64,000 bases of DNA from Candidatus Shapirobacteria bacterium (GCA_041661765.1 JBAZTV010000003.1:1064-65063); one strand, 5' to 3'. Shown: positions 1,972-59,435, numbered from the stretch's first letter. Notes: a model not told the origin generated them from the letters alone. Translations and numbers: made by a program.

Positions 1972-2544
1972 TTAGTTTCTCAAAATTACATCAATTGAAA
2001 ATGATCTAGTCGTTCCACTAGATAAACCAAATACCCCCGCTCCTAAATTAAAATTAAATTTAACTTTAGACAACTGTAAAGAGGGGAGAGTAGAACAAGT
2101 TACAAATCCATCACAATTTTCTAAATACAAATCATTATTTTTTTGAAACAAATAAATTGTTGTTCCTACATCTTTTTTCCCCGAAATCGAAGCAATTTTA
2201 TAACTATTAGTACCAGAATCATAAAGACAAGAAATGGTTGTTTTCTCCCCATCTTTAACATTAGTCATCACCATAGAAGTGCCACCGCCCACTGGACAAT
2301 TAAAATTAGAATCCGCTCCATTATAACCACTACTATTAGCATTCAAAATATTTTTTTTGAGTTCATTCAAAATCCAACTACCATTCTGATTAATTTTATC
2401 AGTCGCTTTATTTTTACTTTGCGAACTAAAAACTCCCGACATTATTCCACTTATCGATCCAATTATAATCATAATCAAACTAATTACTATTAAAATTTCA
2501 ATGAATGTAAAACCTGTCTGCCGACAGGCATGGCCTTTTTTCAT
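1972..2544 (-). CDS. Type IV pilin-like / pseudopilin protein (prepilin N-terminus GFTFIEILIV)
   Basis: Class III signal peptide motif G|FTFIE with Glu+5 and a hydrophobic N-terminal helix. Confidence 0.6.
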   Translation of the reverse strand: MKKGHACRQTGFTFIEILIVISLIMIIIGSISGIMSGVFSSQSKNKATDKINQNGSWILNELKKNILNANSSGYNGADSNFNCPVGGGTSMVMTNVKDGEKTTISCLYDSGTNSYKIASISGKKDVGTTIYLFQKNNDLYLENCDGFVTCSTLPSLQLSKVKFNFNLGAGVFGLSSGTTRSFSIDVILRN

Positions 2545-2930
2545 AATCCTTTTCTCAAAAAAACTCTTTCAACAGATAACCTTTGAGAATCTCCCCATGT
2601 TATTGTAAAAATAATTTTACAACTATTATTATCGCAATTATCATATGTAGTATCATACGAATAACCAGAAAAATCAGTGTTAGATTGATTAGTGATATTA
2701 GTATGGCTTGGTGCATTCCAAAAACTGAGAATATTATTTTCATCTTTAAAATAATTAACCTTATCTTCAATTAACAATTGAGACAATTCTATTGCTTTTT
2801 GCCTCTCTGAAGCTATTCTTTTAGCCTTAGCCGTAACCACCATCAACATCACCACTCCCACCAACACTAAAATTACAATTCCCATCGAAAAAATTACTTC
2901 AACTAAACTTTGCCCTTTATTATTTTTCAT
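2541..2930 (-). CDS. Minor pilin/pseudopilin (prepilin motif GQSLVEVIFS)
   Basis: N-terminal G|QSLVEV followed by a hydrophobic helix; small size. Confidence 0.55.
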   Translation of the reverse strand: MKNNKGQSLVEVIFSMGIVILVLVGVVMLMVVTAKAKRIASERQKAIELSQLLIEDKVNYFKDENNILSFWNAPSHTNITNQSNTDFSGYSYDTTYDNCDNNSCKIIFTITWGDSQRLSVERVFLRKGL

Positions 2931-3393
2931 AAATTAATCCTGATTCATCAATTTTAATATTTTTAGTTGCACCCACACCATTAATAATAATACTAGCCGT
3001 TCCACCAATTGATCTACCATCAGTAACACTAAATCTAATTATTCCTGTTCCGCCTGGGCCATAAAAAGTTACTCCCACTCCTTTTGGAGTAATATCTTTT
3101 GAAAAAATGGTTTCAATATAAGAAATATCATCTTCCTTGTAAGATTCCATTTCCATCAATCCATCACTATTAATTTTTACGAATAATCTGTTTCCATCGC
3201 CCGTAAATTGATTAGTAGCAGCATAATTTCTGGCAAATCTCAAATTAGATATTAACTCTTGTCTAGTCGATTCTACTTTTTGATTTTCAAAAAAATTATT
3301 CAAAGACACTGTACCAAAACCCACCACCAACATCCCAATCGTTATTGCTATCAATAATTCAATTAAAGTAAAACCAAAACTATTTTTTTTCAT
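2920..3393 (-). CDS. Minor pilin/pseudopilin (GspH/FimT-like; leader MKKNSFG|FTLIELL)
   Basis: Canonical prepilin cleavage motif with Glu+5. Confidence 0.65.
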   Translation of the reverse strand: MKKNSFGFTLIELLIAITIGMLVVGFGTVSLNNFFENQKVESTRQELISNLRFARNYAATNQFTGDGNRLFVKINSDGLMEMESYKEDDISYIETIFSKDITPKGVGVTFYGPGGTGIIRFSVTDGRSIGGTASIIINGVGATKNIKIDESGLIYEK

Positions 3394-3798
3394 TTACGGA
3401 TTAGTCACAGTATAATCACCAGTTTCTTCTAAAGTTGCAGTAATAGTATAAGTATAACCCGAATGGGTATAATCATAATCTTGATTAGTTTTCGGATCCT
3501 TAGGCAAATTTTGAAGATAACTAGGAACTAAAGATGACGAAAGCGCCGGATAAGAAGTCCCCACATTTTGTCTATACAATTCCAACGCTATTCTTATTTT
3601 TTCCAAATCAGCCATTCTTCTATTATCCCTAGCTTTTTTGCTGGTTCCACTATAACTAACCATTCCTACTACAGTTAATACTGCAATTATCGTTACCGTC
3701 ACAATCAACTCAATCAAAGTAAAGCCTGAATTACCTTCCTTTTTAAGGGAGGTCCTTGAACGAAGTGAAAGGGGTGGGTTTGTTCCTTGATTTTTCAT
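3394..3798 (-). CDS. Pilin/pseudopilin (GspG-like) with an elongated 25-aa leader peptide that is encoded by an inserted G-rich repeat element
   Basis: Leader ...PPLSLRSRTSLKKEGNSG|FTLIELIV; KARDNRR..DL motif typical of GspG/PilA N-domains. Confidence 0.65.
   Translation of the reverse strand: MKNQGTNPPLSLRSRTSLKKEGNSGFTLIELIVTVTIIAVLTVVGMVSYSGTSKKARDNRRMADLEKIRIALELYRQNVGTSYPALSSSLVPSYLQNLPKDPKTNQDYDYTHSGYTYTITATLEETGDYTVTNP
3745..3781 (+). repeat. G-rich hairpin element copy R1 (AAGGGAGGT-ccttgaacgaagtgaaagg-GGTGGGTTT)
   Basis: Shares AAGGGAGG...GGGTTT flanks and an internal hairpin with 8 other copies; lies in the prepilin leader coding region. Confidence 0.7.
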
Positions 3799-3808
3799 AT
3801 CTTTTAAA

Positions 3809-3845
3809 CCCTCCTTTCCTCAAGGGAGGGTAGGGTGGGTTTTTA
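3809..3845 (+). repeat. Degenerate G-rich element copy R2 (CCCTCC-loop-GGGAGGG tagGGTGGGTTTTT). On the minus strand it reads as a stem-loop plus T-run, a terminator-like structure downstream of pilin 3843..4292
   Basis: Stem CCCTCC/GGGAGG followed by GGGTTTTT. Confidence 0.5.
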
Positions 3846-4292
3846 TTGTTGATTTTTTACACAAAAATAACCTTTTGGAGACACGTTAAATTGACAACTA
3901 ACATTAGCATTAGAATTAGCACTATTTTCCATTGCAACACAAATACAATATCCACTTGCGTTACAATCAGTAGCACAACTATAATCTTCACCTTTAGGAC
4001 CACTTGGATAACTCTCTAAAACAACAACACCACTAGCCGGAGACCACTGATCCCCAGAACTATAAGTAGTTGGGTAAGAATACGCATTTTGAGAATAATA
4101 TTGTTCAGCTGCTGTCTGTATTAATTTTAAATCTTCTATTCTTCTTACATCTCTAGTTTTCTTCTGAGCTCCAGAATAAGCCACCGACACTATCGCCGTC
4201 AAAATTCCAATAATCGAAATCACTATCAACAACTCAAATAATGAAAACCCGATTTGCCAATATATATAATCTCTTTTTTTTTCAATACTCAT
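3843..4292 (-). CDS. Type IV pilin-like protein (leader ...YWQIG|FSLFELLIV), Cys-rich C-terminal domain
   Basis: Prepilin motif plus KKTRDVRR..DL N-domain signature. Confidence 0.6.
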   Translation of the reverse strand: MSIEKKRDYIYWQIGFSLFELLIVISIIGILTAIVSVAYSGAQKKTRDVRRIEDLKLIQTAAEQYYSQNAYSYPTTYSSGDQWSPASGVVVLESYPSGPKGEDYSCATDCNASGYCICVAMENSANSNANVSCQFNVSPKGYFCVKNQQ

Positions 4293-4849
4293 TATAATTT
4301 AGTCTCGTCAAAACCTGAAGTAAGAGCAGAATTAGGACTAGAAATACCATAACAATAGGTTACACTATTAGACACAAAAGCAGATTTACATTGAGAATCA
4401 CTTTTATTTTCCAAATTAGCAAAAAGATAGAAGGTTTTATTATCAGTCTTATGTCTATAAGAATATATATAAGGGTCCACATTTTTTGGATCTTTTGGCA
4501 TTTCCGCCATATAAACAATTCCTCCAGGACCAGTCAAACCAACACTACTTCCCAAAAAAGCATCTGAATTTAAATCCGGCAAAACTCCATTATCATTGTA
4601 ATACATAATCAAAGCTTTTGACAACGCATCTAACTCAGTTTTTCTTTGAGTATCCCGAGCTTTCTTTTGAGCCCCAGAAAAGGCCACCGCTCCAATCATT
4701 GTCAAAATTCCAATAATCGAAATCACCACCAATAATTCTACTAAAGTAAAACCAAAATTAAATCCTCCTTTTTTAAGGGAGGTCTTTGAACGAAGTGAAA
4801 AGAGTGGTTTTGTTCTTTGATTTTTATTTTTCATATTTTTAATTTCCAC
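4292..4849 (-). CDS. Type IV pilin-like protein with a ~25-30 aa leader (alternative start at 4834) that contains a repeat-element-encoded segment KPLFSLRSKTSLKKGG before G|FTLVELL
   Basis: Prepilin motif; AQKKARDTQRK..L signature. Confidence 0.65.
   Translation of the reverse strand: MEIKNMKNKNQRTKPLFSLRSKTSLKKGGFNFGFTLVELLVVISIIGILTMIGAVAFSGAQKKARDTQRKTELDALSKALIMYYNDNGVLPDLNSDAFLGSSVGLTGPGGIVYMAEMPKDPKNVDPYIYSYRHKTDNKTFYLFANLENKSDSQCKSAFVSNSVTYCYGISSPNSALTSGFDETKL
4775..4811 (+). repeat. G-rich hairpin element copy R3 (AAGGGAGGT-ctttgaacgaagtgaaaaga-GTGGTTTT)
   Basis: Near-identical to R1, with a compensatory stem change (CCTT/AAGG becomes TCTTT/AAAGA). Confidence 0.7.
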
Positions 4850-5291
4850 AAACCATAAAAACCTTATCTTCTGTTACACCAACACCACATTTCACCTGAG
4901 AATCAGTATCATCACTTCCAGCCCCAGTCTCCAAAGCCGCTTTTAACCTAAAAGTATCACCACTAGAATCCATATAAGCATAACTATAACCAATATTTTC
5001 CATCGACGGCATATAAGTTTTACCAACTGATTCATTTAAACAAGTAGAGTTATAAACACCAACTTCATCATCACAACCCGTAGTCGGATAAGACTGATTA
5101 TCATTATAATACATTCTCAACGCAGATTTAATCGAATTCAAATCCTGAATTTTTTGAGCATCTTTAGCTCTCTCTCTCATCCCCATAAAATTCACCACCA
5201 AAACAGCTGTCAAAATTCCAATAATCGAAATCACCACCAATAATTCAATTAAACTAAAACCACTATTATTTTGTTGTTTCATTTGTTTCAT
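4839..5291 (-). CDS. Type IV pilin-like protein (start MKQMKQQNNSG|FSLIELLVV); the ORF-track N-terminal extension is probably not translated
   Basis: Prepilin motif at internal Met 85 of the listed ORF; ERAKDAQK..DL signature. Confidence 0.6.
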   Translation of the reverse strand: MKQMKQQNNSGFSLIELLVVISIIGILTAVLVVNFMGMRERAKDAQKIQDLNSIKSALRMYYNDNQSYPTTGCDDEVGVYNSTCLNESVGKTYMPSMENIGYSYAYMDSSGDTFRLKAALETGAGSDDTDSQVKCGVGVTEDKVFMVCGN

Positions 5292-5718
5292 TAACGTTAT
5301 TAATATCAGTATAACAATATTTAATTCCATTGCACAAGTATTTATTTTCTTTACAATCAGTGTCATTTTTATTTTCAAATTCAGCAGACATTTTAAAAGA
5401 AACACCATCACTTCCAATCTCATAACAATATTCTTTATCTCCATGTTTTTCCCTTGGCACTGAATTTGCATATGTATAACCATTATCAACAAAACTCTTT
5501 CCCCAAAGACTATTAACCAATTCATTACTCGGCAACTTTCCATAATCAGTAAAATAAAGTTTAATTACTTTAGAAAATTCATTCAAATCAGATCTCCTTT
5601 GTAAATCTCTAGATTTTGCCTGGGCTAAATCAAATTGTTTACAAGTTATAAAAGACAAAATTCCAACCACTGTCACTATTATTAATAATTCCAAACAAGT
5701 CTTTTTTTTCATAAACAC
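5266..5718 (-). CDS. Pilin-like protein with an atypical N-terminus (MFMKKKTCLELLIIVTVVG; no canonical Gly-Phe cleavage site)
   Basis: Hydrophobic N-helix plus AKSRDLQRRSDL N-domain signature. Confidence 0.45.
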   Translation of the reverse strand: MFMKKKTCLELLIIVTVVGILSFITCKQFDLAQAKSRDLQRRSDLNEFSKVIKLYFTDYGKLPSNELVNSLWGKSFVDNGYTYANSVPREKHGDKEYCYEIGSDGVSFKMSAEFENKNDTDCKENKYLCNGIKYCYTDINNVNETNETTK

Positions 5719-6407
5719 TCATCACCACAACAACTAACTTGACATTTACTTAAACAATCACCGCTATCAATTGACACATAAAAACAATTATCACCACTAC
5801 AACCACCACTTCTACTTTCACAACTACCACCCACACTACCTACTAAACAGGAACTAGTATCACAATCTGGATTTATATAATTCTCATACCATACAATGTT
5901 TGGACTCGACACCCCATAGTTAACTTTATTTTTAGTTATACCAGTTAAAAGTATATCTGTTCGTATATACCAATCTTTCGGAATGTCATCATCTTCCTTG
6001 TTTTCTAAATTAGTCATCACCCTAAATTTATTTGTTTCCGCAATTACCATATAAGGATTTCCGTCTGGATCACACGGCCACGGAGACAAATATTGGGAAA
6101 AATTAATACTATTACTATGACAATTTGATTTTATATTCCAATTACTAATATCTTGCGGATAATATCCCTTATCATTAAAATATTCCTCAAAAGCCTGTTT
6201 AATTCTATTTAGATCTTTTTTCCTCTGCGAATCTCTACTCTTATTCACCGGATTAATCATCACAAAAGCTCCAATCATTATTATCGCTATCATAATAACA
6301 ATTGTCATTACTATTAAAATTTCCACCAAAGTAAAACCTAAATTACGTCGCCCTATCAAGGGAGATGTCCCGACTTGTCGGGACAGAGGGTTTATTCCTT
6401 TTTTCAT
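5709..6407 (-). CDS. Type IV pilin-like protein; true start is probably the ATG at 6407 (MKKGINPLSRQVGTSPLIGRRNLG|FTLVEIL). The 24-aa leader is encoded by repeat copy R4; very Cys-rich C-terminus
   Basis: Prepilin motif; start overlaps the pilD stop (TAATG); leader region coincides with the repeat element. Confidence 0.6.
   Translation of the reverse strand: MKKGINPLSRQVGTSPLIGRRNLGFTLVEILIVMTIVIMIAIIMIGAFVMINPVNKSRDSQRKKDLNRIKQAFEEYFNDKGYYPQDISNWNIKSNCHSNSINFSQYLSPWPCDPDGNPYMVIAETNKFRVMTNLENKEDDDIPKDWYIRTDILLTGITKNKVNYGVSSPNIVWYENYINPDCDTSSCLVGSVGGSCESRSGGCSGDNCFYVSIDSGDCLSKCQVSCCGDECL
6358..6393 (+). repeat. G-rich hairpin element copy R4 (AAGGGAGA-TGTCCCGACttGTCGGGACA-GAGGGTTTA)
   Basis: Perfect 9-bp hairpin between the conserved G-rich flanks. 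Confidence 0.75.
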
Positions 6408-7237
6408 TACTGTATTAATTTTACAATTAAATCTCCCCACCACCAAGCCACCAAAATTCCTAAAATCATAAACGGACCAAAAGGGACTTGTGTTTTCCTA
6501 TCCGCTTTTTTAAAAATCATCAATATTAACCCCAAAATTGCCCCAACAACAAAAGCCACATAAAAGGCTATTATCGTTTTAGGATATCCTAAAAACAATC
6601 CCATAAACAAAGCCAACTTAACATCTCCCATCCCCATTCCACTACCTTTAGTTATCAAATTTAAAATTAATAAAAACCCACTAGCCACCAACGCTGATAG
6701 TATTTGTTGTAAGGGCAGACCGATGTGTCTGCCCCACATATCGCCCAGCAGAAAAACAATTGCACATCCAATTAAAATTACTGTCGAAAAATCCGGCAAA
6801 ATCATATATTTTAAATCAAATACCGCACTAAAAACCAAGAAAACAATAATCAAAAAACCTAAAATTAACTGTAGTAGAGACGTTGCATGCAACGTCTCTA
6901 CGAAATTAAACCTAAAAACTAAAAAAAACAATACAAATAAAATCCCCATAACTAATTCCACAACAGGGTAGGAGAGTGGTAATTTTTTATAGCAACATTT
7001 TGTTTTACCTTTTAAAATCAACCAAGAAATCACTGGCACATTTTCATACCAATTCAATTGTCTACCACAATAATCACAAAACGATCTTTTCTCATTTATG
7101 TAGGGGCTAACCCTTGTGTCCGCCCTTTTAATTTTTAAAATTTTATAATTTACAGCCGTCCTATAAACCAACATATTCACAAAACTCCCAAAACATAAAC
7201 CCAAAACAAAAATAATAATTCCAATTAACATTTCCAT
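6407..7237 (-). CDS. pilD: Prepilin peptidase (A24 family, PilD-like) with an in-frame REP-like palindrome insertion
   Basis: N-terminal CDYCGRQ...C..KCC zinc-binding motif, multiple TM helices, GMGDVKL motif; insertion encodes VETLHATSLLQ. Confidence 0.8.
   Translation of the reverse strand: MEMLIGIIIFVLGLCFGSFVNMLVYRTAVNYKILKIKRADTRVSPYINEKRSFCDYCGRQLNWYENVPVISWLILKGKTKCCYKKLPLSYPVVELVMGILFVLFFLVFRFNFVETLHATSLLQLILGFLIIVFLVFSAVFDLKYMILPDFSTVILIGCAIVFLLGDMWGRHIGLPLQQILSALVASGFLLILNLITKGSGMGMGDVKLALFMGLFLGYPKTIIAFYVAFVVGAILGLILMIFKKADRKTQVPFGPFMILGILVAWWWGDLIVKLIQ
6874..6901 (+). repeat. REP-like palindrome GTAGAGACG-ttgcatgcaa-CGTCTCTAC, in frame inside pilD
   Basis: Perfect 9-bp stem with terminal GTAG/CTAC; same family as 15872, 33299, 41917, 41995, 63605. 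Confidence 0.8.
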
Positions 7238-7276
7238 ATCTCATTCTAACAAAAATTAAAGGCTTCTCCCTTTTTT

Positions 7277-7315
7277 AAGGGGAGATGTCCCGATTTATCG
7301 GGACAGAGAGGTTTT
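7277..7315 (+). repeat. G-rich hairpin element copy R5 (AAGGGGAGA-TGTCCCGATttATCGGGACA-GAGAGGTTTT), intergenic between pilD and pilA
   Basis: Same as R4 but with a compensatory C/G to T/A change that keeps the stem. Confidence 0.75.
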
Positions 7316-7323
7316 CTCCAATC

Positions 7324-7349
7324 AAAAACCCCGCCATCAAGCGGGGTTT
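7324..7349 (-). terminator. Rho-independent terminator hairpin AAACCCCGC-catcaa-GCGGGGTTT downstream of the major pilin gene (palindromic, could act bidirectionally)
   Basis: 9-bp GC-rich stem; T-run follows on the minus strand. Confidence 0.6.
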
Positions 7350-7371
7350 AAAGTTTATTCTTAATTCTTTA

Positions 7372-8088
7372 TTAAGGAACACATTTAAACAAAGATGTTG
7401 CAACAGTTTCAAAATCCCATGGAGATACAGGATAACCAGTAGTTTGGTCAAACACTGCAGCATCAGTATTAATAACTCTAGTTAAAGAAGTTACATTTGC
7501 ACCAGTCATAGTAGGTTTATAAAGTACAGTATCAACTGTACCAGCTCTATTTGCTTTTGCCTTCGGGATATAACAAACAAGAACTGAATTACCCTCCGCA
7601 GTCCCAAGCTTATTAATAACCAAATAATTAGTTCCATCATCAACAAATTTGGGATCAGCACTAGAAAGTGAAGTATATCCCTTAATCAAAAATGAATCTT
7701 TTAACTCATCCTTTACTACTAAAGCCCCCCGTTGATTATAACTACTACACAAAGAAGTAGGAGTTTGTAAAAGAGGGTCAATGCTATTAGTAGAACATAA
7801 ACCAGCTCCCACCATATTACTAGATCCAACCCATGCAGTATCAGCAGAAGCGACCGCACCACTATTAGTGTCCATCCAAGGATAAGTAAATTTAACAGTA
7901 TAATACCTTTCATAAGCATTCATAACTTCAGCTGCATCATTCTGTGCAGTCGCATCCTTCGCCTTATTCGATTGTTCAATTGGATTAATAGTCGCCAACA
8001 CAGCCACCGACAAAATTGCAATCAACGCTATAACAATTAAAAGTTCCACTAAGGTAAAACCTCTCATTTTACTTATCTTATTTTTCAT
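7372..8088 (-). CDS. pilA: Major type IV pilin (PilA-like), leader MKNKISKMRG|FTLVELLIV
   Basis: Canonical prepilin motif; largest pilin; followed by its own terminator; immediately downstream of pilC. Confidence 0.7.
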   Translation of the reverse strand: MKNKISKMRGFTLVELLIVIALIAILSVAVLATINPIEQSNKAKDATAQNDAAEVMNAYERYYTVKFTYPWMDTNSGAVASADTAWVGSSNMVGAGLCSTNSIDPLLQTPTSLCSSYNQRGALVVKDELKDSFLIKGYTSLSSADPKFVDDGTNYLVINKLGTAEGNSVLVCYIPKAKANRAGTVDTVLYKPTMTGANVTSLTRVINTDAAVFDQTTGYPVSPWDFETVATSLFKCVP

Positions 8089-8166
8089 TTATTTTAATAA
8101 ATATTTAATTCTATTTAATTCATTATTCACCACTAAAATTACGATGTCAAGTTGTTGTTTTTTAAA

Positions 8167-9378
8167 TTACATACTCGATGTCAAATTATAGATTGGCATC
8201 AAAACCGCCACCACTAAAAAAGCCACACCTATCCCCAACAAAATCATAATTATCGGCTCAATTGCTGAAGTCAATGATTTAACCGATTGTTCCGCCTCAG
8301 CCGAAAAATAATCTGATACTTTTAAAAGTACACTATCTAATTTTCCCGTTGCTTCGCCTGTCGCCACCATCTGGTTTACAATTACCGGAAAAACTCCTGT
8401 TTCTTCAAAAGAATTCGCAATCGAAAAACCTTTTTGAACTCTTTCAGATATTTTTAAATACGCCCCTCTAAAAAGTTCATTTGCCGACACACTTGAAACA
8501 ATTCTTAAAGCATCAACTAAAGAAATTCCTGCCGATAAAAGCATTGACAAAGTCCTAATAGTATCTGCCAAAACAGTTTTTTGGCTTAAGGGTCCGATAA
8601 TTGGAATTTTTAATTTATAAATATCCACCTTTAATCTAAACTTAGCATTTCTATCTCCAATCTTAAAAAGTACAAAAAAACCAAAAATTAAAAATGGAAT
8701 TAAAAACCAAAATTTAACTATAAAATCAGATGTTGCCATTAAGGCTTGGGTTGATGCTGGCATTTTTGCATCAAAATCCTCATACAAAGACATCATTTTT
8801 GGAATCACAAAAATCATCATTATAATAACCACAATAATCATACCTACAACCACAATTGCCGGATAAATCATTGCTCCTTTAACCTTACCGGAAAATTCAT
8901 TTTGTTTTTCCAAATTATCAGCTAATTTAACCAATACTTCCTCCAAAACCCCACCTTCTTCACCAGCTTCAATCGAAGCAATATATGCCTCACCAAAATT
9001 TTTTTTATACCTTCCTAAACCATCTGCCAAAGTATGCCCTCCTTGAACCGTTGCCAAAGTATATTCCAAAATTTCAAACATCAAGCTTTTTTTATCAGAT
9101 TGACTTTTCAAAAGCGATAAAGCATCGGTTAAAACTAGACCAGAAGTCATCATTGTTGATAACTGTCTAGTAAAATTAGTAATTTGTTTCAAATTAATTT
9201 TTGAAAAAATCTTTTTATACATCTCATTTATAATCGAAGTACTTTCAACAACTACCGACAATGGTACTAACCCTCCACCTTTTATTGATTCCACAGCTGA
9301 ATTCTTGTCTTGCGATTCCAAAAACCCCTTAATTGTTTTTCCATTCCAATCTTTAGCTTTATAAAAAAATTTCGTCAT
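8167..9378 (-). CDS. pilC: Type IV pilus platform protein PilC (GspF family)
   Basis: 403 aa; duplicated GspF domain; three TM segments. Confidence 0.8.
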   Translation of the reverse strand: MTKFFYKAKDWNGKTIKGFLESQDKNSAVESIKGGGLVPLSVVVESTSIINEMYKKIFSKINLKQITNFTRQLSTMMTSGLVLTDALSLLKSQSDKKSLMFEILEYTLATVQGGHTLADGLGRYKKNFGEAYIASIEAGEEGGVLEEVLVKLADNLEKQNEFSGKVKGAMIYPAIVVVGMIIVVIIMMIFVIPKMMSLYEDFDAKMPASTQALMATSDFIVKFWFLIPFLIFGFFVLFKIGDRNAKFRLKVDIYKLKIPIIGPLSQKTVLADTIRTLSMLLSAGISLVDALRIVSSVSANELFRGAYLKISERVQKGFSIANSFEETGVFPVIVNQMVATGEATGKLDSVLLKVSDYFSAEAEQSVKSLTSAIEPIIMILLGIGVAFLVVAVLMPIYNLTSSM

Positions 9379-10442
9379 ATTTTTTGACGTCCTAATTTAC
9401 CCTGTAGTTCAATTGCATTATTTGCATAAGTCATGGCCACTTCTTCCGAAACTTTTCCTTCCAAGACCAATTTAGCCATATATGCATCAAAACTTATCAT
9501 CCCAATATCAGCACCAGTCTGAATAATATTATCAATCATAAAAGATTTTCCTTCCCTTATTACATTTCGAACCGCCGGTGTGGCAATTAAAATTTCAAAA
9601 ACAGGAATTCTACCACCAGCAATTGCTGGCACTAATCTTTGAGAAACAATTGCTGTAATTACTGTTGCCAACTGAACTCTGATCTGATCCTTTGATCCAA
9701 TTGGAAAAACATCCACAATCCTATCAATTGTCTGTGCCGCTGAATTTGTATGTAAAACCGAAAAAACTAAATGTCCTGTTTCAGCAATCGTTAAAGCCGA
9801 AGACGTCGATTCTAAATCCCTCATTTCACCTAAAAACACCACATTTGGATCCTGCCTTAAACAAGACCTTAATGCTAAACCAAAACTATTTGTGTCTCCC
9901 CCCATTTCTCTTTGTGAAATTATCGCTTTTTCTGGCTTAATTAAATACTCAACCGGATCCTCAATCGTCACAATATGCCCACCCTTAGTCCTATTAATTT
10001 CCTCCAGTATTGCCGCCACTGTCGTTGATTTACCATGTCCAGTTGGACCAGTAACTAATATAAAACCTTGTTTATATTTAATAAAATCTCTTAAAATACT
10101 TGGAATACTTAATTCCTCAAAATCAGGTATTTTTGAAGAAATTAACCTCAAAGCACAAGCAGGGTCACCTTTTTGTAAATAAACATTCGCCCTAAAACGA
10201 ACCCCAACTGCCTCAAATGAAAAATCCAATTCTTTTTCTTTTTTAAAAATTTCTAATTGTTCCTCATTTAAAAGCGATAAAACCATTTCCATTATTTCTT
10301 TATTCGTTGTTTTTTCAAAACCAAACACATTTAAAAGCTCTCCATCAACCCTAATTTTTGGAGATACGTCTGAAATTAAATGAACATCCGAAGCCTTATA
10401 ATCAACTGCATATTTTAAAATTTCCTCCATTTTTATGTTCAT
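9375..10442 (-). CDS. pilT: Type IV pilus retraction ATPase PilT
   Basis: 355 aa; Walker A GPTGHGKST; PilT/GspE family architecture. Confidence 0.75.
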   Translation of the reverse strand: MNIKMEEILKYAVDYKASDVHLISDVSPKIRVDGELLNVFGFEKTTNKEIMEMVLSLLNEEQLEIFKKEKELDFSFEAVGVRFRANVYLQKGDPACALRLISSKIPDFEELSIPSILRDFIKYKQGFILVTGPTGHGKSTTVAAILEEINRTKGGHIVTIEDPVEYLIKPEKAIISQREMGGDTNSFGLALRSCLRQDPNVVFLGEMRDLESTSSALTIAETGHLVFSVLHTNSAAQTIDRIVDVFPIGSKDQIRVQLATVITAIVSQRLVPAIAGGRIPVFEILIATPAVRNVIREGKSFMIDNIIQTGADIGMISFDAYMAKLVLEGKVSEEVAMTYANNAIELQGKLGRQKI

Positions 10443-10460
10443 ACTTTTGTTTTTAATTTT

Positions 10461-12200
10461 TTAATATTGAGCAACTCTAATAACTTCATCCATACTTGTC
10501 ACTCCTTCTAAAACCTTTACATATCCATCTTCTTTCATTGATAACATTCCTTCTTCCATCGCCAATCTCTGGATATCTGAAGCCGACGCTTTACCAACTA
10601 TTAACTTACTTATTTTTTCACTAATCGGCATCACCTCATAAATAGCAATTCTTCCTAAATATCCAGTATTATTACATTTTTCACAACCAACAATTTTAGG
10701 CAACATCATTTTCTTTCCTTCTTTTTTAAATTTATCCTCAATCATATTATAAATAGGACCCAAAGTTTTTTTAAGTTCTTCTAATTTATCTGGCGGTATT
10801 TCCATTTCACTTACACAAGTTTTACAAACTTTTCTTAAAACTCTTTGCCCCACCACACAATTCAAAGACGATACTAATAAAAACGGCTCCGCTCCCATAT
10901 CTAAAAGTCTTGGAGGCACACCTGAAGCGTCATTAGTATGTAGTGTTGAAAAAACTAAATGACCAGTCAAGGCAGCATTAATAGCCAAATCTGCCGTTTC
11001 TGAATCACGAATTTCTCCCACCATAATTATGTTAGGATCTTGACGTAAAAATGATCTCAACGCCGAAGCAAAAGTCAAACCAGCCTGGACATTCACCTGA
11101 ACCTGATTTACACCTTTCATTTGATATTCCACTGGATCCTCAACTGTCACCACATTAACCTTCGATGTTGCCACAATATCTAAAATCGAATATAAAGTTG
11201 TTGTTTTACCAGATCCAGTTGGACCACAAATAATAATAATTCCATGAGGTCTCTGAATCGCATTCATTAAATTTTTTAAAGCCAATCCTCTCAGCCCCAA
11301 ATCTTGCAATGTTGGCACTTTTTGAGATTTTTTAAGTAAACGCATAACCACTTTTTCACCGTAAGTTGTCGGTAAGGTTGATATACGTAAATCAACATCA
11401 TTACCATCAGTCGTAAAGAAAAATCTTCCGTCTTGAGGTATTCTTTTTTCATCAATTTTTAAACCAGACAAAATTTTAATTCTTGATATTACCGCGTCAT
11501 GAACGTTTCTTGGTAATAAATATTTTTCCTGCAAAATTCCGTCAATTCTATACCTAATCCTAACACTATCTTCCTGTGGTTCAATATGAACATCAGAAGC
11601 TCTTGATTTAACAGCGTATTCCAAAATTGTTGTTACTATTTTCGATACTGGTGCTTCTACTGTCACTTTTTCTTCAGCTAATTTCATTATTTTTTCTTCA
11701 TCTTTTCTTTCATCCAAAGCCCTTGTCACCTCTGAAGTAATATTTTTCTCCCTGATATATTTTTCTTTAACGAAAGAAACAATCTGTTTTTCCAAAGCAA
11801 TTGCAACACCCACTTTTAAACCCGTTTTCTTTTCTAAAAATTCAATAGTCTCCAAATCTAACGGATTAACCATGGCCACTGACAAAATCTTATTCTTTGT
11901 ATCTAGATTATAGGGGACTATTTTATATTTTCGGGCCACACTCTCTGGTACCAAAGTTAAAGCTTCTGGTGAAAATCCAATCGTTTCTAAATCGACAAAT
12001 GGTACTCTTAAAAAATCCGCTTTCGCCTTAATAAAATCTACATCTGAAACAAATCTCAACGCCTTAATTACTTCTTCTTCTGTCTCTCCAGTTTTTAACT
12101 GTCTCAACTTAATTTCCTCTACCTTTTCTTGATTAATTAATCCTTTTTCCAAAAGGACTCCCTTTAAATTCTTATATATTTTTGAGGCAAAATCATTCAT
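10461..12200 (-). CDS. pilB: Type IV pilus assembly ATPase PilB (GspE family)
   Basis: 579 aa; N-terminal GspE_N domain; Walker A GPTGSGKTTT; tetracysteine CKTC...CEKC. Confidence 0.8.
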   Translation of the reverse strand: MNDFASKIYKNLKGVLLEKGLINQEKVEEIKLRQLKTGETEEEVIKALRFVSDVDFIKAKADFLRVPFVDLETIGFSPEALTLVPESVARKYKIVPYNLDTKNKILSVAMVNPLDLETIEFLEKKTGLKVGVAIALEKQIVSFVKEKYIREKNITSEVTRALDERKDEEKIMKLAEEKVTVEAPVSKIVTTILEYAVKSRASDVHIEPQEDSVRIRYRIDGILQEKYLLPRNVHDAVISRIKILSGLKIDEKRIPQDGRFFFTTDGNDVDLRISTLPTTYGEKVVMRLLKKSQKVPTLQDLGLRGLALKNLMNAIQRPHGIIIICGPTGSGKTTTLYSILDIVATSKVNVVTVEDPVEYQMKGVNQVQVNVQAGLTFASALRSFLRQDPNIIMVGEIRDSETADLAINAALTGHLVFSTLHTNDASGVPPRLLDMGAEPFLLVSSLNCVVGQRVLRKVCKTCVSEMEIPPDKLEELKKTLGPIYNMIEDKFKKEGKKMMLPKIVGCEKCNNTGYLGRIAIYEVMPISEKISKLIVGKASASDIQRLAMEEGMLSMKEDGYVKVLEGVTSMDEVIRVAQY

Positions 12201-14083: not shown

Positions 14084-16135
14084 ATGATCAATCTTGATTC
14101 TCCCGAATTAAAAAATATTTCTCCCGAAAAATTGGGTGAACTTCTAATCGAAGCCAAAAAAGCTTACTACACCGACAGCAAGCCCATCATGGATGATCAC
14201 ACCTACGATATTCTCGAAGACATATTGCGAAAAATTAATCCTTATCATCGGATTTTTACTAAAATCGGCAGTTCCCATTTCAATAGCGGTTTTGACAAAA
14301 AAAAGCATTCCATGCCCATGGGCTCCCAAAACAAAGTCAATAAAATCGACGATCTCGTTCACTATTTTGAATTAAAGAAAGTTTTACCCCTCCTTGTCAA
14401 AGGAGGGGATAGGGGTGGATTGGTCGTTCAACCAAAATGTGACGGCATTTCCTTAGAAATTGAATATAAAAATGGTAAATTAGTTGATGCTATCACTCGC
14501 GGCGACGGCGAAATAGGAGATGTTATCACCCAAAATGTTGTCAAAATGAAAAATTTTGTCCAAGAATTCAAGGACAATTTTTCCGGCTCAGTCCGTTGCG
14601 AAATCGTAATGCTCGAAAAAGATTTTCAAAAATTAAATGAAATAATAAAAAACCGCCCTATCTCGGCCACAGGCCGATCCGCCTCTGGCGGAAAGGGAGG
14701 TGTCCCCGCCACAGCGGGGACGGAGGGTTTCTACAGTAACTCTCGCAATGCCGTCTCTGGTATCTCACAGCGCCTTGACGGCAAATTTTCTGAACTCTGT
14801 AGTCTTTATGCTGTCGACATTTATAGCCTCCCTGTCAAGGGAGGTGCCCAAAGGGCGGAGGGTTTCAAAACCGAACAAGAAAAAATTGATTTTCTAAAAC
14901 ATCATGGCTTCACTACTGTTGAAGATCTTCATTGTCAAAATTTTGACCAAATCGAAAAAATCTACCAAGAATTTTTAATTAAAAAAAGAAAAAATTATCC
15001 TTTTGAAATCGACGGTCTCGTCATTAAAATTAACGATACTGAAATACAACATCGTCTAGGTTCTAAAAATAATCGTCCCAAAGGTCAAGTGGCCTACAAA
15101 TTTCCATCTCGCTCCAGTCAAACGAGAATTATTAATATCAATTGGCAAGTTGGTCCAATGGGAACAATTACTCCTGTCGCCGAAGTCGATCCCATCGAAA
15201 TTTCCGGCGCCATCATTACCTTTGCCTCGCTGGCCAATTACGATTTAATCAAAGAAAAAAATATTAATATTAATGACATCGTTGAAATTCAAAGAAGAGG
15301 AGATGTTATCCCTCACATTGAAAACGTCATTACCAAAATTAATCCCGGCCACATCGTCGCTCCCACAGTTTGTCCTTCTTGTGGCACCAAATTAATCATC
15401 GATAATAAATTTTTGCGCTGTCCTAATATTAAAAATTGTCCTACTCAAATTCTCGGTTCTCTTAAATTATTTTGTAGCACTTTAGAAATTAAAGGTATCT
15501 CCGAAAAAACCATCGACAAACTTTATAAAGAAAAATTAATTCGCCTTCCGGGTGATTTTTATGACCTAAAAGTTTCCTATTTTGAAAAACTTTTTGGCCT
15601 TGGCCACAAATCGGGGACCAATATCATTAAAGAAATCCAAAATAAAAGAAAACTATCATTAAAACAAATTTTTGACGCCGCAATTATTCCCAACTTTAGT
15701 TCTCAACGAATTGTTCAACTGATTAATGCTGGTTTCGATACTCCTGAAAAAATTTTAAATATCACCATCGATCAGCTCGAAGCACTTCCCGGAATTCAAA
15801 TTACTTTGGCTAAAAAAATCTATCAAGGCATCCAAGACCGCCGCGATTTTATTATATCCATTCTTGCTCATGTAGAGACGCCCCGCCGGGACGTCTCTAC
15901 ATCAAACAAACTAAACAACCTATCTTTTGCCATCACCGGCGCTCTTAATAAACCCAGAAAAGAAATTGAAGATCAAATCATTTCTCTCGGTGGTCAATTA
16001 GTTTCCTCTATTTCTAAAAATACTAACTATTTGATTACTAACGAAACCGAATCCAATTCCAGTAAATTTTTAAACGCTAAAAAATTTGGAACCAAAATAA
16101 TTTCTGAATCTGATTTTGAATTATTAGCAGTCTAG
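14084..16135 (+). CDS. ligA: NAD-dependent DNA ligase LigA carrying three in-frame repeat-element insertions
   Basis: KxDG adenylation motif (KCDGISLE), Zn finger C..C...C..C, HhH and BRCT regions; insertions SATGRSASGGKGGVPATAGTEGF, PVKGGAQRAEGF and HVETPRRDVSTS. Confidence 0.85.
   Translation: MINLDSPELKNISPEKLGELLIEAKKAYYTDSKPIMDDHTYDILEDILRKINPYHRIFTKIGSSHFNSGFDKKKHSMPMGSQNKVNKIDDLVHYFELKKVLPLLVKGGDRGGLVVQPKCDGISLEIEYKNGKLVDAITRGDGEIGDVITQNVVKMKNFVQEFKDNFSGSVRCEIVMLEKDFQKLNEIIKNRPISATGRSASGGKGGVPATAGTEGFYSNSRNAVSGISQRLDGKFSELCSLYAVDIYSLPVKGGAQRAEGFKTEQEKIDFLKHHGFTTVEDLHCQNFDQIEKIYQEFLIKKRKNYPFEIDGLVIKINDTEIQHRLGSKNNRPKGQVAYKFPSRSSQTRIININWQVGPMGTITPVAEVDPIEISGAIITFASLANYDLIKEKNININDIVEIQRRGDVIPHIENVITKINPGHIVAPTVCPSCGTKLIIDNKFLRCPNIKNCPTQILGSLKLFCSTLEIKGISEKTIDKLYKEKLIRLPGDFYDLKVSYFEKLFGLGHKSGTNIIKEIQNKRKLSLKQIFDAAIIPNFSSQRIVQLINAGFDTPEKILNITIDQLEALPGIQITLAKKIYQGIQDRRDFIISILAHVETPRRDVSTSNKLNNLSFAITGALNKPRKEIEDQIISLGGQLVSSISKNTNYLITNETESNSSKFLNAKKFGTKIISESDFELLAV
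14661..14730 (+). repeat. G-rich element copy R6, long form with two hairpins (CCGCCtctGGCGG and GTCCCCGC-caca-GCGGGGAC), in frame in ligA
   Basis: Its 5' extension is homologous to R9 with a compensatory stem change. Confidence 0.75.
14827..14865 (+). repeat. G-rich element copy R7 (CCTCCCTgtcaAGGGAGGTGCCCaaaGGGCGGAGGGTTT), in frame in ligA
   Basis: Near-identical to R8. Confidence 0.75.
15872..15900 (+). repeat. REP-like palindrome GTAGAGACG-ccccgccggga-CGTCTCTAC, in frame in ligA
   Basis: 9-bp stem with GTAG/CTAC termini. Confidence 0.8.
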
Positions 16136-33298: not shown

Positions 33299-33332
33299 GT
33301 AGAGACGGTCCGAAATTTCGGACCGTCTCTAC
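33299..33332 (+). repeat. REP-like perfect 34-nt palindrome GTAGAGACGGTCCGAAATTTCGGACCGTCTCTAC, intergenic after gyrA (probably also a terminator)
   Basis: 17-bp perfect stem with GTAG/CTAC termini. Confidence 0.8.
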
Positions 33333-34480: not shown

Positions 34481-35322
34481 AAACTATCTTATCATGATAC
34501 CAATTAAGAGGTAAAAGTAATCAGAAAATTTTTAATCTTCATTTCTAGGGGCTCTGGTGACGTCTTAGGTTCATTTTGCCTATCTTTAGGCACAATTATC
34601 AAAATCTCCTCTTTAAAATAGTACAGGGGAGTCAATCACCAAATTTTAAACCCAAAGACCATCTATAAAGCAGGCAAGTCAAATAGGGAATTTGTTTATT
34701 AATTAATTATTAAAAATAAATAAATAAAAGCATGATCCAAATAAAAGAAAAAATAAAAATTTTGAAAAAGACAAAAAACAGCACTCCCCCTACCTAACTC
34801 TTTAGTTAATGTCGCAAAAGATACATTGTGCGACATAGCATATTTAGCCACCTTCTGCTAGGAGATAGGAATAAAAACTCTTTTCCCTCTCTTAGTTATT
34901 TATTAATTAATAATTAATTCTCCATTATTAATTAATTGATAAATAACTCTTACTCCTCCCTCTTGGGCAGTCCTTTTTGATACATTCGGTAAAAAATAGG
35001 TTTTCCACATAGACTATATCACACTATATCACCTGCTCCGTGAAAACTATAGTATATTTCGTGAAAATATTATAGGATGTTTTATATTATAGGACTCCCC
35101 TCCGCCCTGCCCACCTGTTCTTAAAAAAAATTAAAAAACTATAAACTTTAAATTAAAATACCCGTTTTTTTAACCTAACTCTGGTTTTTTTATAGATTAA
35201 AAAAATAGTTCATTGCCTATCATCTACAATTTAAAAATTAATTCTAAACTCCCCTGTTTTAAGAACAAAAAACCATCAAATTATACCTATCTTTCCATTA
35301 AAAATAAATATAAAGTCGCTCT
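34481..35322. other. ~850-bp ORF-free AT-rich region with iteron-like direct repeats (ctatatcac x2, cgtgaaaaNta x2, tattatagg x2), inverted repeats (34897-34952; ATGTCGCA-N12-TGCGACAT at 34817-34844) and three CAGGGGAGT motifs; candidate replication origin, Xer/dif-like site or element boundary
   Basis: Read directly; none of the six-frame ORFs explains it (the one 79-aa ORF there has no support). Confidence 0.4.
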
Positions 35323-35384
35323 GTCTCAGCCAAAGGCTGATCGGCCTCTGGCCGAAAGGGAGGTGCCCGCATGGCGGAGGGTTT
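35323..35384 (+). repeat. G-rich element copy R9, long form (CGGCCtctGGCCG hairpin plus AAGGGAGGTGCCCgcatGGCGGAGGGTTTT), abutting the stop of the ABC exporter gene
   Basis: Homologous to R6 over ~60 nt. Confidence 0.75.
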
Positions 35385-41635: not shown

Positions 41636-41681
41636 CTTGAAAGTAAATCTATTATCTCACAACCAAAGCTATTTTTTAAGT

Positions 41682-41700
41682 TGTAGAGACCCCCTGTGGG
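41682..41700 (+). repeat. Partial REP (GTAGAGAC + CCCCtgtGGGG hairpin) at the 3' end of the RAYT gene
   Basis: Shares the GTAGAGAC head with the other REPs. Confidence 0.5.
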
Positions 41701-41916
41701 GCAATTTATAAAATTTATCTTTTTGCCAATTAATAGGATTATTGATTATATAATTTTTGATCATTAATAGTTCTTTTTCATCTTTAATGATTTGATCGTG
41801 GAAACGAGGTTGCCAAGCAAACCAAAGATTTTGATGGTTACAAATTGATTTTACTGAAGCTTTAAATAATTTTATAACTCTAGGAATAATCTGATTGGAT
41901 TTAATATTAATTTTTT

Positions 41917-41942
41917 GTAGAGACGCATTGAATGCGTCTCTT
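41917..41942 (+). repeat. REP-like palindrome GTAGAGACGCATT-ga-AATGCGTCTCT inside the RAYT gene
   Basis: 11-bp perfect stem, GTAG head. Confidence 0.8.
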
Positions 41943-41994
41943 GTATTATTATTTGTATTTTGTGTTGAATTATTGTTTGTATCCTGTGTTAGAC

Positions 41995-42019
41995 AGAGAC
42001 GCACACAGTGCGTCTCTAC
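41995..42019 (-). repeat. REP-like palindrome AGAGACGCAC-aca-GTGCGTCTCTAC (GTAG head on the minus strand), inverted relative to 41917; the two form a BIME-like doublet
   Basis: 10-bp perfect stem, CTAC tail on plus. Confidence 0.8.
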
Positions 42020-42350
42020 ATTTGTGTTAAGTGGTTGGTTTTTAATTTGAATTAATATATGCACATGGTTTGGCATAATTACCCATTCATGTAATTTAAT
42101 ATTTTTTCTTATTTTAAATGTTTTTAATAATTCAGATTTAGTAAAAATCACCACGTTTAGATAATTTCATTTTATTATCAATAATTTTTCCAAAAAAATT
42201 ATTATGGTTGTAAGTGCAGATGGTGATGAAATAATATCCAGGGGTGGAATAATTCCAATTTTGAAGACGAGAATATTTTAATTTAAATTTGTCGGCAAAT
42301 TTGGTTGGATTATCGACCACACATTATTGTAACAATTTTTACAAAATAAA

Positions 42351-51209: not shown

Positions 51210-51249
51210 GCCGCCCTGTCAAGGGAGGTGCCCGAAGGGCGGAGGGTTT
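51210..51249 (+). repeat. G-rich element copy R8 (CCGCCCTgtcaAGGGAGGTGCCCgaaGGGCGGAGGGTTT) between hisS and the HAD gene; its GGAGGG tail sits 5 nt before the HAD ATG, so it may act as an RBS
   Basis: Near-identical to R7. Confidence 0.75.
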
Positions 51250-59140: not shown

Positions 59141-59170
59141 CAAAAAACAAGTCCCTCTTGTCAAAGAGGG
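59141..59170 (-). terminator. Terminator hairpin CCCTCTT-gtca-AAGAGGG plus T-run, downstream of rpsR
   Basis: 7-bp stem followed by TTTTTT on the minus strand. Confidence 0.6.
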
Positions 59171-59183
59171 ATTTAGGGAGATT

Positions 59184-59435
59184 TTATTGAGTTGTAAAAG
59201 GCAATAAAGCCAAATGCCTTGCTTGTTTAATAGCCTTCATTAATTTTCTTTGATGTTTGGCACAAGTTCCACTAAATTGAGATCCCACAATTCTCGATCT
59301 AGCCGACAAAAATTCTCTCATTTTTTCATAATCTTGCCAAGTCGGAACACTGTTAATTTTACAAAAAGAACAACCTTTCTCTCGCCCTCTTCTTTTTGCT
59401 GCTAATATATTATCTTTTTTACTTTTCTTTATCAT
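59184..59435 (-). CDS. rpsR: 30S ribosomal protein S18
   Basis: CxFC...RxxxG...RRQL-like S18 core. Confidence 0.85.
   Translation of the reverse strand: MIKKSKKDNILAAKRRGREKGCSFCKINSVPTWQDYEKMREFLSARSRIVGSQFSGTCAKHQRKLMKAIKQARHLALLPFTTQ

Follow-up and report, generated by a model that had tools for sequence, protein, structure and literature searches.

We analysed a 64-kb stretch of DNA (the window, at its full length; 32% GC) from a metagenome-assembled genome of Candidatus Shapirobacteria (Patescibacteria), and find that in three minus-strand prepilin genes of its type IV pilus operon a GC-rich repeat of 42–52 nt separates the ATG from the cleavage motif G|FTL(I/V)E and makes the leader peptides three to four times longer. 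The explanation that we favor, and consider probable, is that these repeats are in-frame insertions similar to repetitive extragenic palindromic (REP) sequences and to Rickettsia palindromic elements (RPEs), tolerated in the prepilin leader because this part of the protein is cleaved off and discarded, so that the leader serves as an insertion sink.

Repeats between the start codon and the cleavage motif

Short GC-rich islands are conspicuous on the AT-rich background of the window; the three leaders that contain a repeat are listed in Table 1. All three open reading frames (ORFs) are intact, have G(-1), F(+1) and E(+5) with a hydrophobic tract after the motif, and match Pfam N_methyl (PF07963; E=4.6e-6, 7e-6 and 7e-4), with weak matches to T2SSG. 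Identical pilin protein sequences are annotated in two independent NCBI assemblies (exact look-up; MFA6185253.1 and MFA6462423.1), and the sequences are therefore not an assembly artefact. A first-pass annotation of the same DNA had placed the element between ATG and motif and had listed the peptides that it encodes; ORFs, translation and Pfam bear out the placement, and the peptides are exactly as we find them. Its range of 24–30 amino acids (aa) for the three leaders agrees with lengths of 24, 25 and 28 aa when gene 4292 (genes are named here by their lower coordinate) is read from an ATG located 4 nt past the stop codon that ends the upstream pilin gene, but not with the GTG at 4849 that the annotation had used, from which this leader counts 33 aa. 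Neighboring pilins, for which it gave 7–15 aa, have leaders of 7, 8, 10 and 15 aa, and the comparison with orthologous genes that it proposed yields close orthologues without the inserts and with leaders of 6–10 aa.

Table 1. Positions of the genes, leaders and repeats discussed in the text, counted from the first letter of the window.
Feature	Position	Strand	Details
Type IV pilus locus	1972-12200	-	PilB-, PilT- and PilC-like genes, pilins, PilD
PilC-, PilT-, PilB-like ORFs	8167-12200	-	named from sequence features
Presumed major pilin	7372-8088		own promoter-like and terminator-like signals
Prepilin peptidase PilD	6407-7237	-	Pfam A24_N_bact E=3e-26, Peptidase_A24 E=5e-14
Operon of eight small pilin-like genes	1972-6407	-
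Prepilin gene 5709	5709..6407	-	232 aa; ATG overlaps PilD stop codon (TAATG)
Leader of gene 5709	6407..6336	-	24 aa, MKKGINPLSRQVGTSPLIGRRNLG; MKKGI-NPLSRQVGTSPLIGRR-NLG, then FTLVE
Family-A repeat, A2 type (two hairpins), in 5709 leader	6347..6393	-	codes NPLSRQVGTSPLIGRR
In-frame TTG in 5709 element	6357..6359	-	8 codons before Phe+1; sole possible internal start in the three genes
Prepilin gene 4292	4292..4834	-	180 aa from ATG 4834; IMG start is GTG 4849
Leader of gene 4292	4834..4751	-	28 aa, MKNKNQRTKPLFSLRSKTSLKKGGFNFG; MKNKNQRT-KPLFSLRSKTSLKKGG-FNFG, then FTLVE
Family-A repeat, subfamily A1, in 4292 leader	4760..4811	-	codes KPLFSLRSKTSLKKGG
Prepilin gene 3394	3394..3798	-	134 aa; N_methyl E=4.6e-6; NCBI MFA6185253.1 (exact protein)
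Leader of gene 3394	3798..3724	-	25 aa, MKNQGTNPPLSLRSRTSLKKEGNSG, then FTLIE; MKNQGTN-PPLSLRSRTSLKKEG-NSG
Family-A repeat, subfamily A1, in 3394 leader	3734..3781	-	C-rich strand read, codes PPLSLRSRTSLKKEG
Short family-A copy	3806..3845	-	between stop of pilin 3843-4292 and ATG 3798; R1 45.9 bits
21-nt palindrome in fourth prepilin leader (gene 1972-2544)	2515..2535	-	MKK-GHACRQT-G, then FTF; -11.3 kcal/mol, z=-2.5
Family-A copy in frame in ligA (14084-16135)	14386..14418	+	G-rich strand, LPLLVKGGDRGG; R1 39.8 bits
Long family-A copy, extra hairpins, in frame in ligA	14653..14735	+	RPISATGRSASGGKGGVPATAGTEGF; -45.4 kcal/mol, z=-3.9
Family-A copy in frame in ligA	14824..14865	+	SLPVKGGAQRAEGF; R1 44.1 bits
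Long intergenic family-A copy	35315..35384		directly 3' of ABC-transporter gene 35384-37144
Intergenic family-A copy	51210..51249		between hisS and HAD-hydrolase gene; R1 42.1 bits
Divergent intergenic family-A-like hairpin	59148..59190		followed by T run; R1 16.1 bits, E=0.0045
Family B, GTAGAGACG-loop-CGTCTCTAC	6874-6901, 15872-15900, 33299-33332, 63605-63632		in PilD, in ligA, -, in ORF 63117-63968
RAYT-like Y1/HUH transposase gene	41669..42320	-	frameshift split near 42150

For every G|F(T/S)L.E motif the in-frame starts lying between it and the preceding stop codon were listed. In genes 3394 and 4292 the stretch from the element to Gly-1 is free of in-frame ATG, GTG and TTG codons, and no in-frame ATT, ATA or CTG comes after the Shine-Dalgarno (SD)-like AAGGAGG; the minimum leaders possible are 25 and 28 aa, respectively. 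As there is no later start, a pilin with Gly-1 and Phe+1 needs read-through of the element, and judged from the sequence at least two of the three genes require translation of the repeat. The upstream starts were chosen by PGAP (the NCBI annotation pipeline) and, independently, by IMG. All of the 13 GC-rich repeats inside ORFs of the window (one in each of four pilins, three in PilD, four in ligA, and those in pth and ORF 63117-63968) keep the frame and are stop-free, and removal of the element at the mRNA level was rejected on account of this uniform behavior ((1/3)^13). Start-codon migration, by which an untranslated element would have become coding, was likewise rejected, as the 0–12 nt between element and GGT TTT are too short for a former start and leader. 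Mis-annotation was also considered, since the sole 100% match in the first homologue search was a truncated protein of 89 aa, and was rejected because PGAP and IMG annotate the long-leader forms.

Evidence for insertion also comes from relatives. The comparison loci (designated L001 and so on) were fetched via pilin similarity and are hence a biased sample, the unbiased part being only the window and five metagenome pattern matches; about 30 loci were usable among the matches listed, many of the other matches being unrelated proteobacterial pilins. Most of the 120 homologues of pilin 3394 have leaders of 5–10 aa, such as MKNKKNG, and about 14 of them carry repeat-like inserts in the leader (NPPLLLCSRTSLKKGG, NPLSQQVGTSPLTGR, PISLNPSLTRGTSKQQ, TLRQAQGER and GHACRQT), one kind having two tandem elements and a leader of 44 aa. 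A multiple alignment of the 120 proteins places all repeat-like inserts in the leader and none in the mature domain, the rare 'mature' indels corresponding to the native Cys-containing C-terminal region; that eight independent insertion events should all fall in the leader has p ~4e-10.

Syntenic loci agree with this pattern. L001 and L003 are without all three inserts of the window, and L004 shares the insert of gene 3394; in L001, a paralogue whose counterpart in the window has no insert contains KPSVDKSTSPLTGRR, and the 3394 orthologue contains GHACRQT. Three pilins of L087 have inserts, double in two cases, and its leaders reach 44 aa. L085 and L086 are near-identical in this region except for a clean 42-nt indel flanked by AAAC|CTTAAT, and this filled and empty site show no target-site duplication. 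The sequences compared imply at least 15 independent insertion events. Large inserts were found in 10/120 homologues of the minor pilin 3394 versus 0/120 homologues of the presumed major pilin (Fisher p=0.0016), the only insert in the latter being a 21-nt palindrome in 4/120. Other lineages of Patescibacteria have other repeats at the same leader site, namely the 21-nt palindrome in L010 and heptamers in L011. The L011 heptamers, (GTTGCCA)n, lie in the leaders of two prepilin paralogues (6667-6730 and 8203-8266; MKKVASCQLPVASC...), and more copies are found elsewhere in that locus. The proposal of the first-pass annotation that the leader is a permissive niche for an in-frame repeat, repeatedly colonized, thus gains support from the orthologue differences and the leader-only inserts; its view that the phenomenon is unusual does not, as long leaders are common in this clade.

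The prepilin leader is hydrophilic, cytoplasmic by the positive-inside rule, and cut after Gly-1 on the cytoplasmic face (PMC4471445). In the frames used, the element-coded peptides are stop-free and have a net charge of +3 to +5, which fits the positive-inside rule and cytoplasmic cleavage (PMC4471445); as they are also hydrophilic and leave Gly-1 and Glu5 untouched, PilD should still process them. The cognate prepilin peptidase and the assembly genes are present in the same locus as the pilins, and PilD is the enzyme expected to cut off these leaders. We suggest that translation would begin at the upstream ATG and run through the repeat, that the hydrophilic, net-positive peptide coded by the repeat would remain on the cytoplasmic side, and that PilD would cut after Gly-1, so that the insert would be lost, the mature pilin would stay as it was and the insertion would be near neutral. 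In this way the leader would accumulate insertions while those in the small mature domain of these 110–200-aa proteins would be purged, and the presumed major pilin, which may be more constrained, would stay nearly insert-free.

One further member of the operon, the pilin-like ORF 5266-5712 (minus strand), is without Gly-1 and Phe+1 (MKKKTCLELLIIV...) and has a degenerate class III signal; it is kept in L001, L086 and L087.

Repeat families and their possible mobility

The repeats of the leaders belong with copies elsewhere in the window that we call family A, laid out on the C-rich strand as AAAC|CC(A/T)CC, a variable GC hairpin, (A)CCTCCCTT, a loop or extra hairpins, and AGGG(A/C)GG. A covariance model (R1) was built from nine non-leader copies (two ligA copies, two intergenic ones of the window and five of related loci) and run with filters off; it matches the leader copy of gene 3394 (3730-3786) with 27.3 bits (E=1.8e-6), that of gene 5709 with 19.2 bits (E=5e-4) and that of gene 4292 in part (E=0.058), the last and the 3394 copy (3734-3795) sharing 89% identity over 62 nt. 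A gapped family pattern gave 5 matches versus 0 in 100 shuffles. By these measures the leader elements and the ligA copies belong to one repeat family. The elements are lineage-restricted, short (~37–85 nt), GC-rich, hairpin-forming interspersed repeats; in the manner of REP or RPE palindromes they contain no stop codon, have lengths divisible by 3 and are retained in frame within genes. A search of Rfam returned no match to the element (window at gathering threshold; 2400-7300 at permissive E-value), only three tRNAs and one chance match. A scan of viral contigs with the family pattern gave 35 single matches in contigs of higher GC, with low model scores, not multi-copy and not of the same family, and we see no sign of phage carriage of family A among these contigs.

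Ten copies of family A lie within the 64 kb. Six are inside ORFs (three in leaders and three in ligA), and the three in leaders occupy leader-coding DNA that makes up 0.3–0.6% of the window (binomial p ~5e-6 to 3e-5). Most copies fold as two adjacent hairpins better than shuffled sequences do (z -2 to -4), the 5709 element among them (RNA fold -19.4 kcal/mol, z=-2.8). A second recurrent position of the family extends from a pilin stop codon to 10–12 nt before the next ATG. The copy of the window at this position (3806-3845; RNA fold -14.7 kcal/mol, z=-2.5) has AAGGAGGG 10 nt before ATG 3798, is absent in L001 and L003 and present in L004; others are found in L006 (5724-5764), L086 (3235-3275), L090 (237-287), L005 (3301-3346) and L089 (2325-2366), and also in L085. 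Here the SD-like AAGGAGGG pairs with the anti-SD-like CCTCCCTT, and these copies could be hairpins for translational coupling or for masking the ribosome-binding site. A copy of a different setting is the long one next to the ABC-transporter gene: the region 33542-35384 consists of a tyrosine recombinase (Phage_integrase) gene followed by ~900 nt without a long ORF, which contain a GC-rich island (35085-35126) and this copy.

In an alignment with L001 and L087, PilD of the window has three in-frame GC-rich inserts (6713-6735, 6874-6901 and 7100-7125). At the PilD site after YRTAVxY the window has RADTRVSPY, and L001 (1706-2503) and L087 (1322-2122) have a different element, SPPLPRLRKG. Family B, a separate family, bears the GTAG tag known from classical REPs; copies lie in frame in PilD, ligA and ORF 63117-63968, and one is intergenic. 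Its half-site GTAGAGAC has 12 occurrences versus 0.43 expected. The window also contains a gene resembling REP-associated tyrosine transposases (RAYTs), with matches to Pfam Y1_Tnp (E=1.3e-6), to NCBIfam REP_Tyr_transpos (54.6 bits, E=1e-14, under the cut-off of 80) and to TnpArep in PDB 4ER8 (E=0.011, the alignment including the HUH and Y-x-x-N-P motifs). This gene holds two GTAGAGACG...CGTCTCT hairpins (~41917-41945 and 41995-42019) and, at its 3' end, a half-site (41683-41690). The RAYT-like protein is a candidate for the enzyme mobilizing family A, although the gene is associated with hairpins of family B and not of family A.

That the leader elements and the ligA copies are read from opposite strands, as the first-pass annotation had noted, holds relative to the genes, and is explained by a shared absolute orientation: in 10/10 copies of family A the C-rich strand is on the minus strand regardless of gene direction (p=0.002). 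The GC skew is negative across the whole window, which is therefore probably one replichore, and the uniform orientation suggests strand-specific, replication-linked insertion. Most of 43 copies of family A are preceded by AAAC or AAAT. The strand bias, the lack of target duplication, the AAAC flank and the RAYT-like gene point to a single-strand mechanism of the HUH-transposase type. These same observations could be accommodated by targeted insertion, or homing, in place of tolerance, if strand-specific, single-strand elements of IS200/IS605 or REP-RAYT type inserted 3' of AAAC or beside GGTTTT, both of which are available in an A-rich leader and the GGT TTT ACT that comes after it. It would also agree with the position of the 21-nt palindrome, which always stands beside GGT TTT and is read in two frames. 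We regard homing as possible but doubt it, as AAAC may be part of the element itself, family A is without the GTAG tag typical of REPs mobilized by RAYTs, and the RAYT-like gene is frameshifted and physically tied to the GTAGAGACG family. Moreover, the ligA and intergenic copies have no GGTTTT target, and the number of empty sites available is one, that of the L085/L086 pair.

The subfamily present in genes 3394 and 4292, A1 (NPPLSLRSRTSLKKGG; core CTTTCACTTCGTTCAAGGACCTCCCTT), is located in leaders in 10/10 known copies, across at least four pilin paralogues. Five copies were known beforehand and five came from an exact-pattern, context-blind scan of a metagenome collection; the latter, the only 5 exact matches in the whole collection, are all between ATG and G|FTL and in the same frame. 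The 3394 copy is absent in the orthologues of L001 and L003 and present in that of L004, and the 4292 copy is absent in L001 and L003. As the copies share flanks (5' AA(A/G)GAACA; 3' TAATTCNGG or a direct fusion GGAGG(T/C)TTTAC), the spreading unit would be the leader in its entirety. Synonymous divergence (dS) between the window and L004 is 0.12 in the leader and 0.58 in the mature part. Sequence comparison thus favors the view that A1 probably spreads as a leader cassette between paralogues by recombination, for which a likely route would be exchange between the A-rich start region, or an upstream repeat, and the conserved alpha1-N coding sequence. For A1, we give cassette exchange between paralogues, or homing, the same likelihood as separate colonization events by a general repeat.

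The 21-nt palindrome is a separate case. The orthologue of the fourth prepilin in L001 reads MKKG then FTL and has no palindrome. The palindrome, GGCCATGCCTGYCGGCAGRCA, is also found at L001 5055-5075, in L005, at L010 8586 and 9558 and at L086 649; it abuts GGT TTT (Gly-1 Phe+1) in every case, is read as GHACRQxG or MPxGRQG, and together with the following TTTT resembles a weak intrinsic terminator. Among the sequences compared it occurs only in pilin leaders. More speculatively, and with less confidence than we would give to homing as such, the A1 cassette and the GHACRQxG palindrome may be prepilin-specific modules, either a homing single-strand element with the conserved pilin 5' end as target, or a selected RNA or leader device for translation, targeting or the PilD-processing hierarchy of minor pilins in Patescibacteria, with sister copies upstream of starts serving as coupling hairpins (anti-SD mimic plus SD).

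A broader form of the functional idea is that the leader elements, A1 above all, are kept for an mRNA hairpin or anti-SD/SD duplex acting on translation or mRNA stability, or for the longer leader itself, through signal recognition particle targeting or the order of PilD processing. The near invariance of A1 in nucleotides across paralogues and genomes, its confinement to leaders and the lower dS in the leader than in the mature part speak for such co-option, as do the sense orientation of all copies in pilin operons at gene starts, just before or after the ATG, and the pairing of AAGGAGGG, 10–12 nt before the ATG, with CCTCCCTT in the intergenic copies. We nevertheless find it unlikely. Presence, absence and type of element vary freely among close orthologues, as would be expected of a dispensable passenger, the folding of A1 does not surpass that of shuffled sequence, and its high identity may equally reflect recent spread in a narrow clade, given the few exact metagenome matches.

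Points of doubt and weaker alternatives

Our preferred explanation, tolerated insertion into a discarded leader, has several points to its disadvantage. When the density of GC islands was compared between leader and mature pilin DNA in 12 loci, no enrichment was found (p=0.07); this metric overlooks the A1 copies, whose GC content is moderate, and includes native Gly/Ala-rich codons, and was replaced by the ortholog-based indels described above. The in-frame TTG of gene 5709 would give a leader of 8 aa. The two A1 copies of genes 3394 and 4292 fold weakly (z about 0), and yet A1 is nearly identical across genes and genomes and thus not obviously passenger-like. The restriction of A1 and the 21-nt palindrome to leaders could reflect targeting or function and not tolerance. 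Cleavage by PilD of leaders of 24–44 aa in this lineage is assumed, where known leaders measure 6–26 aa overall, up to 18 aa in type IVa and 15–30 aa in type IVb pilins (PMC4471445).

We consider it highly improbable that the element is 5'-untranslated and that translation starts downstream to give short true leaders. An internal start right before the G|F motif, which the first-pass annotation had named as the observation that would reduce the element to this role, is absent from genes 3394 and 4292, where a later start would lose Gly-1 and Phe+1; gene 5709 has the TTG. This TTG is in frame, SD-like AAGGAGG occurs inside the elements, and Di Nocera et al. (PMC3733652) have argued that many REPs predicted at the N-termini of ORFs are extragenic. 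No SD-like sequence lies upstream of the TTG, however, and the start ATG of gene 5709 and the stop codon of pilD overlap (TAATG), as they also do for the insert-free orthologue of L001, where the leader is MIKKNG. The frame is moreover open through the element in all copies and in every genome seen. Equally remote is the idea that the insertions inactivated the genes and that the pilins are decaying pseudogenes, which the leaders of 24–44 aa, above the documented type IVa-like range, and the concentration of inserts in minor pilins might suggest, but which would require three pilins of one operon and many in relatives to be dead and still in frame, with all ORFs intact, Gly-1 and Glu5 conserved, and a ratio of nonsynonymous to synonymous divergence in the mature part of gene 3394 of 0.13 against both L001 and L003 and 0.43 against L004, which shares the insert.

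In the episymbiotic lifestyle of these bacteria type IV pili have a central part, and any effect of the inserts on the dosage of minor pilins would for this reason matter biologically. The tolerated insertions illustrate how selfish hairpin repeats survive in a gene-dense, reduced genome at a place where the protein part is thrown away, and they could be useful for defining the substrate limits of PilD and for the engineering of pilin leaders. We point out that pilin leaders of 25–44 aa in Patescibacteria are real, and that rules for finding pilins which cap the leader length miss such genes. With its uniform orientation and RAYT-like gene, the lineage is a candidate system for REP-like mobility outside Proteobacteria. 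The finding would gain in interest should the cassette turn out to home or to have a function.

Two features of the window lie apart from the pilus and the repeat families. At its very start, 1-186 contains a 90-nt sequence in two identical direct copies, 96 nt apart. At 52426-53154 (plus strand), directly after an L31-like (rpmE) ORF, is a release-factor homologue of 242 aa with a partial PCRF and an RF-1 domain and without the N-terminal domain.

Relation to known repeats and prepilins

In-frame insertions of REPs and RPEs are documented, some of them at N-termini (PMC3733652, PMC2229807), and intragenic GTAG/CGTC REPs include one in a DNA ligase gene and N-terminal copies (PMC3733652). In the literature we found no description of repeats colonizing class III signal peptides or prepilin leaders, and nothing specific on in-frame REP-like palindromes or a RAYT in Patescibacteria. 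The kind of element is thus known, and what is new is the prepilin-leader niche, its recurrence across the clade, the leader-only subfamily and the uniform orientation.

The RPEs of Rickettsia (Ogata et al. 2000, summarised in PMC2229807 and PMC3733652) are the closest likeness in behavior. Both are selfish palindromes that lie in frame within conserved genes, in a genome that is small, AT-rich and reduced; both undergo translation and are tolerated at permissive sites, sometimes N-terminal, and in our case the ORF likewise continues on both sides of the insert in ligA (four), PilD (three) and four pilins. RPEs are nevertheless set apart by length (~100–150 bp) and by their alphaproteobacterial host, are called unrelated in sequence, and none is described in a cleaved signal peptide or as confined to the leader of one protein family. 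GTAG/CGTC REPs and their RAYTs (Di Nocera et al. 2013, PMC3733652; Bertels and Rainey 2011, PMC3116915) are also GC-rich hairpins of 20–40 nt, single or grouped, with some intragenic copies including the one in DNA ligase. Family A shares with them a short, GC-rich, imperfect palindrome in many dispersed copies, and the window has a RAYT-like gene and a family B with the GTAG tag; family A differs in having no GTAG/CGTC tag, an asymmetric layout of two hairpins and mostly intragenic, not extragenic, copies.

Among mobile elements, the 'peel and paste' IS200/IS605 transposons and their non-autonomous derivatives also combine hairpin ends, no target-site duplication (seen here at one site), a short 5' flank, here AAAC, and a strict strand bias (10/10 here), a likeness that is circumstantial; the elements described here are far shorter, and neither an autonomous element nor an intact TnpA was seen. 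MITEs, which are miniature transposable elements with inverted repeats, differ from family A in that the 42-nt indel of L085/L086 has no duplication and the AAACCC...GGGTTT ends are short and imperfect. In the enterobacterial and Yersinia MITE-ORF fusions (YPO1552; Delihas 2007/2008, PMC2229807) a small mobile repeat is likewise translated in an N-terminal export signal, but these are isolated cases in class I signals of hypothetical proteins, whereas here the repeat enters the hydrophilic n-region of class III signals repeatedly, across paralogues and genomes. The type IVb and Tad pilins (leaders of 15–30 aa; PMC4471445) place 24–28 aa within the range that prepilin peptidases process; the pilins described here are small and type IVa-like, with orthologue leaders of 5–10 aa, their extra length is a recent repeat insertion, and leaders of relatives reach 36–44 aa. 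We conclude that family A works like the in-frame palindromes described before, but probably belongs to neither the RPE nor the GTAG-REP families.

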